A DNA stretch of 64,000 nt, taken from Eledone cirrhosa (lineage: Eukaryota). The notes under the pieces were generated by a model that saw only the letters and a list, made by a program, of their open reading frames with translations, had not been told where the DNA came from and searched no databases. Where the stretch lies: contig OZ024764.1 in assembly GCA_964016885.1 (NCBI GenBank), forward strand, positions 9,300,001-9,364,000, read 5' to 3'. This document shows, one piece after another, positions 42,948 through 43,406 of the stretch. Position numbers and translations under genes: made by a program. Position 1 is the stretch's first letter; each line of letters opens with the position of its first letter.

Positions 42948-43090
42948 AATATTTATTTATTATCTATATATATGTATATATATACATATATATATATGTA
43001 GAAGTTATATTTAAATTGTTGGGATACAACGAGCAAATATTTTTATAACTGATATAAAGCACTCAACAAATAATTGGAGTAAAAATACGA

Positions 43091-43406
43091 TATATTAACA
43101 AATGGAAACTATATTTATAAAACCATATTTATTTCATTATACATATTTCAAGGACACCAAGTCAAATTATGGTGCGCTTTCATCAGATAAAATATAATAT
43201 AGATCAGTTTTATAAATATCTCTATTCAGGAGCTTCCAACAGAAATGGTCGCATTCTTTAAGGGTATGTCAATATTTATTTATAAAACTGATCTATATTA
43301 TATTTTATCTGATGAAAGCGCACCATAATTTGCCTTGGTGGCCCTTGAAATATGTATAATGAAATAAATATGGTTTTATAAATATAGTTTCCATTTGTTA
43401 ATATAT
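43091..43406. mobile_element. Fold-back element with two outward-facing family B hammerheads
   Basis: Arms at 43091-43219 and 43278-43406. Hammerhead cores at 43130-43194 (-) and 43301-43366 (+). Confidence 0.78.

Follow-up and report, generated by a model that had tools for sequence, protein, structure and literature searches.

Head-to-head truncated insertions with putative hammerheads and a shared bulged tail hairpin in (TA)n tracts of Eledone cirrhosa DNA

The 64,000-nt stretch of Eledone cirrhosa DNA analysed here in full (the window; assembly GCA_964016885.1, contig OZ024764.1, positions 9,300,001 to 9,364,000 of the forward strand) is animal DNA dense in (TA)n tracts, tandem arrays and short repeats. 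It carries an ARMT1-like gene on the minus strand, with its best named relative in Octopus sinensis (73% over a 120-aa piece) and its start codon at 13194; every palindrome described below lies upstream of that codon. The start codon is overlapped by a 103-bp unit repeated 20.4 times at 13148-15246 (99% alike), an array that could be real or an assembly effect, and because the unit contains an acceptor-like site and the first codons, the region upstream of the start may be a 5′ UTR intron. Further tandem arrays occupy 5254-10620, 38194-38667, 11016-11572 and 55049-55871; a 49-bp unit (109 copies) and a 48-bp unit each correspond to a portion of a dispersed short repeat, and two sites carry a 116-bp unit in opposite orientation. 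A GTG-rich simple array, nearly CpG-free, extends over 6.8 kb (20762-27566). Fragments of LINE-like reverse transcriptase (RT) with a PHD finger lie at 40431-42026 and 52121-53074 (both minus strand), with related pieces at 16862-17724 and 33557-34133; their 3′ ends resemble abundant short repeats with (GAT)n tails. These fragments were the only RTs found when the frames were scanned against Pfam, and they are unlinked to the palindromes. The window also contains a C2H2 finger (51030-51203) and a tRNA-like sequence with three non-standard pairs (57787-57857, minus strand), the latter being the sole match above an Rfam gathering score in the window.

Unmasked self-BLAST of the window was dominated by (TA)n. 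Inverted repeats were scanned for after masking 13,731 microsatellite bases, using a score threshold of at least 18 and 30 dinucleotide-preserving shuffles as controls, which revealed 16 loci in the window compared to 0 per shuffle (n = 30). A first-pass annotation had reported a fold-back layout at 13 sites in unrelated families, and 12 of these are among the 16 scan loci. At the remaining site, 18470-18665, the inverted arm amounts to merely 13-24 degenerate nucleotides and falls below the scan, although the two-arm layout is apparent in the family alignment. The focal locus, 43091-43406, comprises arms at 43085-43218 and 43277-43411 with 97% identity over 135 columns and a 58-nt spacer, within a family A insertion spanning 42998-43411. 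Families were named A-M from BLAST of 20 loci together with family alignments. The 13 sites do belong to different families, eight in all (A, B, C, D and E twice each; F, H and I once), among which BLAST detected no similarity except for one A-D chimera. The scan contributed three loci absent from the earlier list (19280-19598, 32158-32508 and 59091-59156), and five further two-armed insertions with little or no arm overlap were likewise absent from it (20111, 31288, 34230, 17909 and 56762). A different kind of structure is present at 59415-59553, where a 21-nt inverted repeat surrounds a roughly mirrored CA/TA/TG microsatellite with a central TA tract, unlike the other palindromes.

At least nine families occur in the 64 kb, with insertion lengths of ~90-420 nt, and each insertion consists of two 5′-truncated copies placed head to head within (TA)n. 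In the following list, positions with a sign are counted from the predicted hammerhead cleavage site, with the hammerhead strand taken as sense; the tail is the segment between a near and a far 3′ end.

42998-43218, minus strand: family A left arm, 5′-truncated, with tail and far end; -82 to +140 from the predicted cleavage site
43061-43080, minus strand: family A bulged tail hairpin (RCUC, inner stem, 2-nt bulge, GAGY)
43138-43186, minus strand: family A type I hammerhead motif of the left arm, by our own descriptor and without an Rfam match
43220-43411, plus strand: family A right arm, stopping at the near end; -139 to about +50, the first 57 nt forming the spacer
43309-43358, plus strand: family A type I hammerhead motif of the right arm, by our own descriptor and without an Rfam match
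42858-42997: (TA)n-rich target tract, left flank of the focal family A insertion
43421-43455: (TA)n tract, right flank of the focal insertion and common to the next insertion
60723-61050: family A insertion; tail arm +16 to +140, inverted 5′ piece of 30-36 nt, sense arm -128 to +46
20111-20349: family A, disjoint arms without an inverted repeat; tail only (+68 to +140), T-run filler, sense arm -97 to +50
32986-33223: family B, staggered arms; hammerhead 33140-33185 (plus), tail hairpin 33024-33044 (minus)
18465-18663: family B, staggered arms overlapping by ~13 nt; degenerate hammerhead (minus), tail hairpin 18607-18627 (plus)
43453-43648: family C flush hairpin; 3′ half of the hammerhead only, tail hairpin 43576-43599 (plus)
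61083-61287: family C flush hairpin with 10 nt of templated filler; tail hairpin 61215-61238 (plus)
19280-19598: family C insertion (19366-19513) whose mirror extends 86 nt into the flank without mismatch; the flank is a TA tract plus a family D end
17908-17994: family C tail-only arm plus a near-end arm of 7-9 nt (weak call)
35916-36287: family D, nested, each of the two arms stopping at the far end; 89 nt of arm at 100% identity, partial hammerhead core (minus)
61681-62015: family D, nested; the short left arm continues into a family A tail (61613-61686)
56502-56666: family E flush hairpin with its turn at -24; tail hairpin 56544-56562 (minus)
63184-63368: family E flush hairpin turning at about -45 at a 6-nt self-complementary site; hammerhead 63319-63357 (plus), tail hairpin 63226-63244 (minus)
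53420-53681: family F flush hairpin; one mismatch in the hammerhead-like core, tail hairpin 53459-53503 (minus)
56762-56866: family F, degenerate, staggered arms; arms identical at 23/27 positions
32091-32512: family G flush hairpin with 165-nt arms; a hammerhead in each arm, 21 nt of templated filler, tail hairpin 32126-32150 (minus)
45118-45360: family H; short outer arm, inverted 5′ piece copied twice, sense copy; hammerhead 45190-45300 (plus)
61356-61602: family I palindrome; arms of 100 nt around a 10-nt spacer, extended by 36 nt on one side; neither hammerhead nor tail hairpin found
59091-59224: family J palindrome with 30-nt arms; no hammerhead or tail hairpin found, not assigned a polarity
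34230-34444: family K, disjoint arms; tail +71 to +129, sense arm -121 to +44, hammerhead 34352-34406 (plus)
31288-31561: family K, disjoint arms with 85 nt of unassigned filler; hammerhead 31469-31523 (plus)
57470-57574, plus strand: family K lone 3′ fragment that includes the tail; tail hairpin 57493-57517
29100-29181, plus strand: family F lone tail; tail hairpin 29109-29143
50914-50971, plus strand: family B lone tail; tail hairpin 50915-50935
60474-60634, plus strand: family M single-arm copy; minimal hammerhead at 60516
15442-15656 (minus) and 30892-31104 (plus): further family M copies

All 19 mapped two-armed insertions, from nine families (I and J were left out of the arm mapping), are arranged head to head with their hammerhead-sense 3′ ends outward. 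The outer ends of these insertions are fixed by family rather than variable: the far end lies at +88 to +140 (+212 in family D, counted from another anchor), the near end at about +12 to +56, and the intervening tail measures 60-90 nt in seven families (36 in family I). A one-sided tail is present in 16 of the 19, its 60-90 nt exceeding the published 30-40 nt. The sequence TATATA adjoins 34/42 outer ends versus 2.8% of background positions, a figure that is partly circular for the near ends, as outer ends were placed by the analyst and near ends partly by means of the TA tract; a target-site duplication is inseparable from the (TA)n flanks. No adjacent same-strand copy, that is, no direct tandem pseudo-LTR (pLTR), was detected by BLAST at any of the 20 query loci.

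The first-pass annotation had described a longer copy joined to an inverted partial copy, which holds for 10/19 mapped insertions; in the other nine, neither arm contains the other, as in the focal insertion, where arms of -82 to +140 and -139 to about +50 are staggered at 97% identity. Sixteen insertions possess one near and one far end, after exclusion of C19366, D35918 and H45118, in which both arms share an end. Of these 16, six are flush (within 2 nt), nine have the near-end arm reaching further 5′, and one shows the reverse. This near/far asymmetry gives p = 0.021 per insertion and, more weakly, 5:1 (p = 0.22) by family. Among the nine staggered or disjoint cases, four are without overlap (one a weak arm of 7-9 nt), and in 9/10 non-flush cases it is the tail arm that is short. 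Both family K sense arms start at -121, only the tail arm being short.

Turn-around points had also been described as variable within a family. When mapped against the ribozyme, they do vary in families A, B, D, E, F and K, unlike the fixed terminal inverted repeats of MITE-like elements, but two of the four family C copies turn at -38 and -40 from the cleavage site. Some inner limits recur (A -137/-139, K -121 twice, M -127 twice, D -50/-52), and this recurrence suggests RNA 5′ ends or strong stops. Junctions are characterized by overlaps of 0-6 nt, self-complementary words, or short templated repeats and fillers. At 19280-19598, the 86 nt of mirrored flank are exact and include an interrupted TA tract and the neighbouring repeat. 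The arms of an insertion are 91-100% identical in 17 of the 18 pairs compared, the eighteenth (F56762) matching at 23/27 positions after re-alignment. Across eight comparisons, the arms of one insertion have 22 alleles in common that are absent from sister copies, and differ at 11/456 columns. The proposal of the first-pass annotation that each insertion makes its own hairpin is supported by the junctions, which differ between copies, and by the private alleles common to both arms.

Some joins involve unlike elements. At 61613-61756, a family A tail passes via ~14-19 similar bases into a family D insertion, at its short arm, possibly by a template switch between two RNAs, or by nested insertion with deletion. 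At 18903-18970, a family A 5′ piece is joined head to head to a SINE head lacking its first bases, and at 15442-15722 a short microsatellite separates a family M copy from the family C fragment that it faces.

A type I hammerhead descriptor matched nine motifs in the window compared to 0-1 in 20 block shuffles, and a looser stem II descriptor matched 12 perfect-core motifs compared to 0-1 in eight shuffles; these shuffles moved dinucleotide tokens and are thus not strictly dinucleotide-preserving. Within the 13 sites listed earlier, the full motif is present at five, a partial or degenerate form is recognizable by alignment at seven, and none occurs at one. Families C, D and F possess a half or variant hammerhead only, I and J have none, and family M carries a minimal form. 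Opposed pairs occur at 43138/43309 and 32210/32375. The G10.1-C11.1 pair is absent in 7/10 families with a readable stem II base (A, B, E, F, G, H and K) and present in D, L and M, while in C just the 3′ C survives; D and M combine it with an extra base between positions 9 and 10.1. Several of the hammerheads have long stem II inserts. Rfam returned no hammerhead at gathering score in the whole window, none among the best 150 of 375 matches in an E-value scan of the window, and none in two focused scans; monomer folds of eight hammerhead segments were no better than shuffles (z +0.7 to -1.9). The hammerheads of these families are accordingly described as putative ribozymes, by motif. No hammerhead match lies inside any tandem array of the window. 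A lone hammerhead at 62659-62737 (plus strand), with G10.1-C11.1 and a long stem II insert, has neither an inverted partner nor a sister copy within the window. Small dispersed families also lie beside (TA)n, one at 16502-16603 and 18128-18229, and another at 32790-32830 and 51300-51340, which has a 5′ hammerhead core and the start of stem II in common with family M and ends there.

The tails of unrelated families share a bulged hairpin composed of RCUC, an inner stem, a 2-nt bulge (UU, UA or UC) and GAGY. A descriptor, written after these tails had been inspected by eye, gave 14 matches in the window, every one of them in sense and within a tail (families A, B, C, E, F, G and K), whereas 100 shuffles averaged 0.74 and never exceeded 4; the remaining 13 bulge dinucleotides gave four matches altogether. 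Five families have A-U as the first pair and two have G-C. The inner three pairs form in 21/21 cases with differing letters, which only 4/5040 strand permutations equal; pairs were counted by script, MAFFT having left the hairpins out of register, and since the representatives were themselves descriptor matches, this is covariation rather than independent discovery. A relaxed search found no such hairpin in D, H, I, J, M or L. As a linear motif without a position constraint, the tail signal is not significant (a score of 52 was reached by 8/40 shuffles and 4/40 random-window sets); within the common band it is modest (1/60 and 0/60), and it is convincing only as a hairpin. The motif was also considered as a coding relic and rejected: it is in frame with the AUG position of the core in 5/7 families, but with stops between, and it is out of frame in the other family A arm.

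The hairpin base lies at +25 to +59 from the cleavage site, and the near end lies 2-12 nt before the hairpin in 12/13 calls from six families, the thirteenth (C61083, +10) being an alignment truncation. Across these six families, near-end and hairpin positions correlate with r = 0.99; family K was omitted, its alignments having fallen on TA runs. Most likely, the hairpin is bound by a protein and serves as the landmark for placing the near end. What it marks could be a start, a stall or an endonuclease site; we favour a start site because staggered insertions exist.

The first-pass annotation had linked the layout to Penelope-like elements (PLEs), and the combination of hammerhead motifs, (TA)n targets, an inverted 5′-truncated copy, a one-sided tail and variable inner junctions does match the accessible text of PMC8557442, PMC3846280 and PMC4209133. 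Specifically, PLEs are described there as carrying an inverted 5′-truncated copy and a 30-40 bp tail at one end (PMC8557442; PMC8969392, likewise in its accessible part), as well as junction palindromes and solo pLTRs (PMC3846280). As in the endonuclease-containing PLEs of those sources (Penelope/Poseidon, Neptune, Nematis, Hydra and Naiad; PMC8557442, PMC3846280), the inverted truncated copy is placed head to head by its 5′ end, the extension is one-ended, palindromes occur at junctions, and microsatellite targets hide target-site duplications. Unlike them, the present insertions have no ORF and no direct tandem copy, some have arms without overlap, and their tails measure 60-90 nt (36 in family I) instead of 30-40. 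The available text of PMC8557442 attributes a (TA)n preference to Naiads, which are without canonical hammerheads and have left remnants in cephalopods, a microsatellite bias to Neptune, and hammerheads to Hydra. Minimal hammerheads of Schistosoma mansoni PLEs form opposite-strand pairs 100-700 bp apart (PMC4209133, as far as its accessible text goes). The motifs here resemble the minimal hammerheads of that source in their type I topology, short or self-complementary helix III, sequence variety within a genome, mostly truncated copies and opposed pairs (PMC4209133), but differ in having G10.1-C11.1 in D, L and M only, several long stem II inserts and no Rfam score.

Among the systems compared, Poseidon_Ac of Anolis carolinensis, characterized in vitro, also uses AT-rich targets, a stem-loop near initiation and two start sites that define the tail (accessible sections of PMC11167929). 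By subtraction from its published figures, Poseidon_Ac starts ~85-92 nt past the hammerhead cut, compared with far ends at +88 to +140 here; its initiation is described as needing no target homology, whereas the near ends here lie in TA-like sequence, 2-12 nt before the bulged hairpin (PMC11167929, same sections). Non-LTR retrozymes are likewise short and non-coding, with a type I hammerhead and probable mobilization by PLEs, and according to the available parts of PMC7229834 and 10.64898/2026.07.22.740005 they form head-to-tail arrays of cleavage-to-cleavage monomers; here, in contrast, the pairs are head to head and the ribozyme is internal and uncut. Overall, the insertions behave as PLE pLTR insertions; they are neither autonomous PLEs nor retrozyme arrays nor MITEs, and they probably descend from a PLE. 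No PLE RT or GIY-YIG domain was found by Pfam in 16 long and 96 short frames of the window, and because no PLE ORF was found, PLE membership is something we only infer. The architecture is already published; what is new is the shared hairpin and the arm geometry. In searches confined to the open literature, which give weak evidence of novelty, we found no description of the cephalopod families, of staggered or disjoint arms used as a test, or of the hairpin; the Poseidon stem-loop of PMC11167929 may bear on the novelty of the last.

We consider it very probable that the palindromes were mobilized by PLEs. Each would be one insertion of a short hammerhead-bearing RNA, a PLE pLTR-type 3′ end that is either non-autonomous or severely truncated. 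The origin of the tandem and inverted structures of PLEs is stated to be open in the available text of PMC8557442, and self-priming on an antisense template was hypothesized, with tests requested, in that of PMC3846280. The first-pass annotation had likewise invoked self-priming. In its pure form, a single cDNA (or antisense RNA) would fold back and copy itself as far as a stall at the tail hairpin or an endonuclease cut, with staggered and disjoint insertions arising by later deletion. Self-priming fits the six of 16 junctions that are flush within 2 nt, at differing positions in family E, and the 86 nt of flank mirrored exactly at 19280-19598, most simply explained by DNA-templated copying past the primer; it also agrees with the private alleles common to both arms, and a stall at the hairpin would account for the near end as well as a start does. 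It predicts, however, that the tail arm contains the other arm, because a fold-back recopies its own content to give nested arms, and this is broken by 9/16 insertions, including the focal one, staggered though its arms are 97% identical. A second priming event or later deletion is thus needed for those nine. Later deletion inside one arm may be the cause, but it would have to hit the tail arm almost always (the short arm in 9/10 non-flush cases) while sparing the 5′ limit of the other, and random deletion would not be expected to leave both family K sense arms with their -121 start while just the tail arm is short. Self-priming is therefore insufficient by itself, and as the only mechanism we regard it as rather unlikely.

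The remaining explanations fare worse. Inheritance from a few source loci that were already inverted and were copied whole via read-through transcripts would explain the alleles common to both arms and the two family C copies that turn within 2 nt of one another, but junction sequences differ in every compared copy, these two included, and layouts differ within families (three in A, two each in B, D, E, F and K), making it improbable. MITE or foldback DNA transposons with terminal inverted repeats would account for TA targets and for 35916-36287 with its identical 89-nt terminal arms; since arm lengths vary within families (A 135, 26 and 0; D 89 and 31; F 79 and 27), this reading is largely refuted, and with two ends that differ in 16/19 insertions and strand-specific RNA motifs that always face outward, it is highly improbable. 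Little more than a token chance attaches to separate insertion events that left two copies of one family next to each other in opposite orientations: elements are crowded in this region, and at three places (61613, 18903 and 15442) different families meet head to head, but the displayed inner junctions have no (TA)n tract, private alleles are common to the arms, and orientation is head to head in 19/19. An assembly or library artefact from fold-back chimeric reads might be considered on account of the three arm pairs that are 100% identical; most pairs differ by 1-9%, ends fall at family-specific boundaries, and disjoint insertions lack any fold-back, so that we give this explanation next to no credence.

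Two-ended priming is the reading that we find fairly probable, and the simplest single model would combine it with optional fold-back of one cDNA before joining. The mobilizing enzyme would be a Penelope-type RT/GIY-YIG protein encoded elsewhere. Its endonuclease would cut both strands of a (TA)n tract, which reads identically on either strand, and both 3′ ends would then prime reverse transcription, one starting just 5′ of the bulged hairpin (the near end, usually giving the longer cDNA) and the other at the far end, 60-90 nt downstream. As the two cDNAs are of the same polarity and cannot anneal, their joining would rely on micro-homology or filler, in many cases once an end of one cDNA has folded back and copied itself: the product would be a flush hairpin where the loop is small, staggered arms where it is large, and disjoint arms where fold-back does not take place. 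Such a scheme explains the common alleles in overlaps without two passes over one RNA. That fold-back also occurs is supported by the mirrored flank at 19280-19598; the alternative there, a 3′ read-through transcript primed twice, has about a one-in-three chance.

In L1 twin priming, reportedly described by Ostertag and Kazazian in 2001, as cited in 10.1101/2024.12.14.628481, cDNA is primed from both target ends to produce an inverted 5′ segment. The insertions studied here differ in that the second site is fixed by family near the hairpin, arms often overlap by 50-170 nt, no poly(A) tail is present, and ends lie at (TA)n. The purified Poseidon protein of the anole, according to the accessible sections of PMC11167929, cuts the two strands of its target and extends each of them, initiating at two internal sites in the RNA by which the tail is defined; by analogy, activity on both strands would supply the second priming event.

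These insertions are short enough to be read whole, and their nested, staggered and disjoint arms discriminate between models of mechanism, while the shared hairpin is a concrete candidate for a cis signal recognized by a PLE protein. Such copies also pose an annotation risk, being easily mistaken for MITEs or for miRNA hairpins (sub-threshold miRNA matches occur in Rfam). The arms make up 3.5% of the window, and the computed fold of 42998-43411 reaches -209 kcal/mol (z about -30). In Octopus bimaculoides, an exceptional share of loci forms near-perfect dsRNA, with strong hyper-editing (PMC5625713, in its available text); by analogy with those data, which concern a different species and a different measure, the present elements are a candidate source of such dsRNA. 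More tentatively, and as somewhat less likely than not, we envisage a cephalopod PLE clade in which the bulged hairpin, conserved but for freely varying inner stems (RCUC, a U-U, U-A or U-C bulge and GAGY), sets an internal RT start a few bases upstream of itself, both ends of cut (TA)n are routinely primed, and many short non-coding families keep the hammerhead and hairpin only. In that case, two-ended priming and not self-priming would be the origin of both the inverted pLTR and the one-sided tail of PLEs, and these insertions would contribute a substantial share of the long dsRNA that underlies hyper-editing in octopus.
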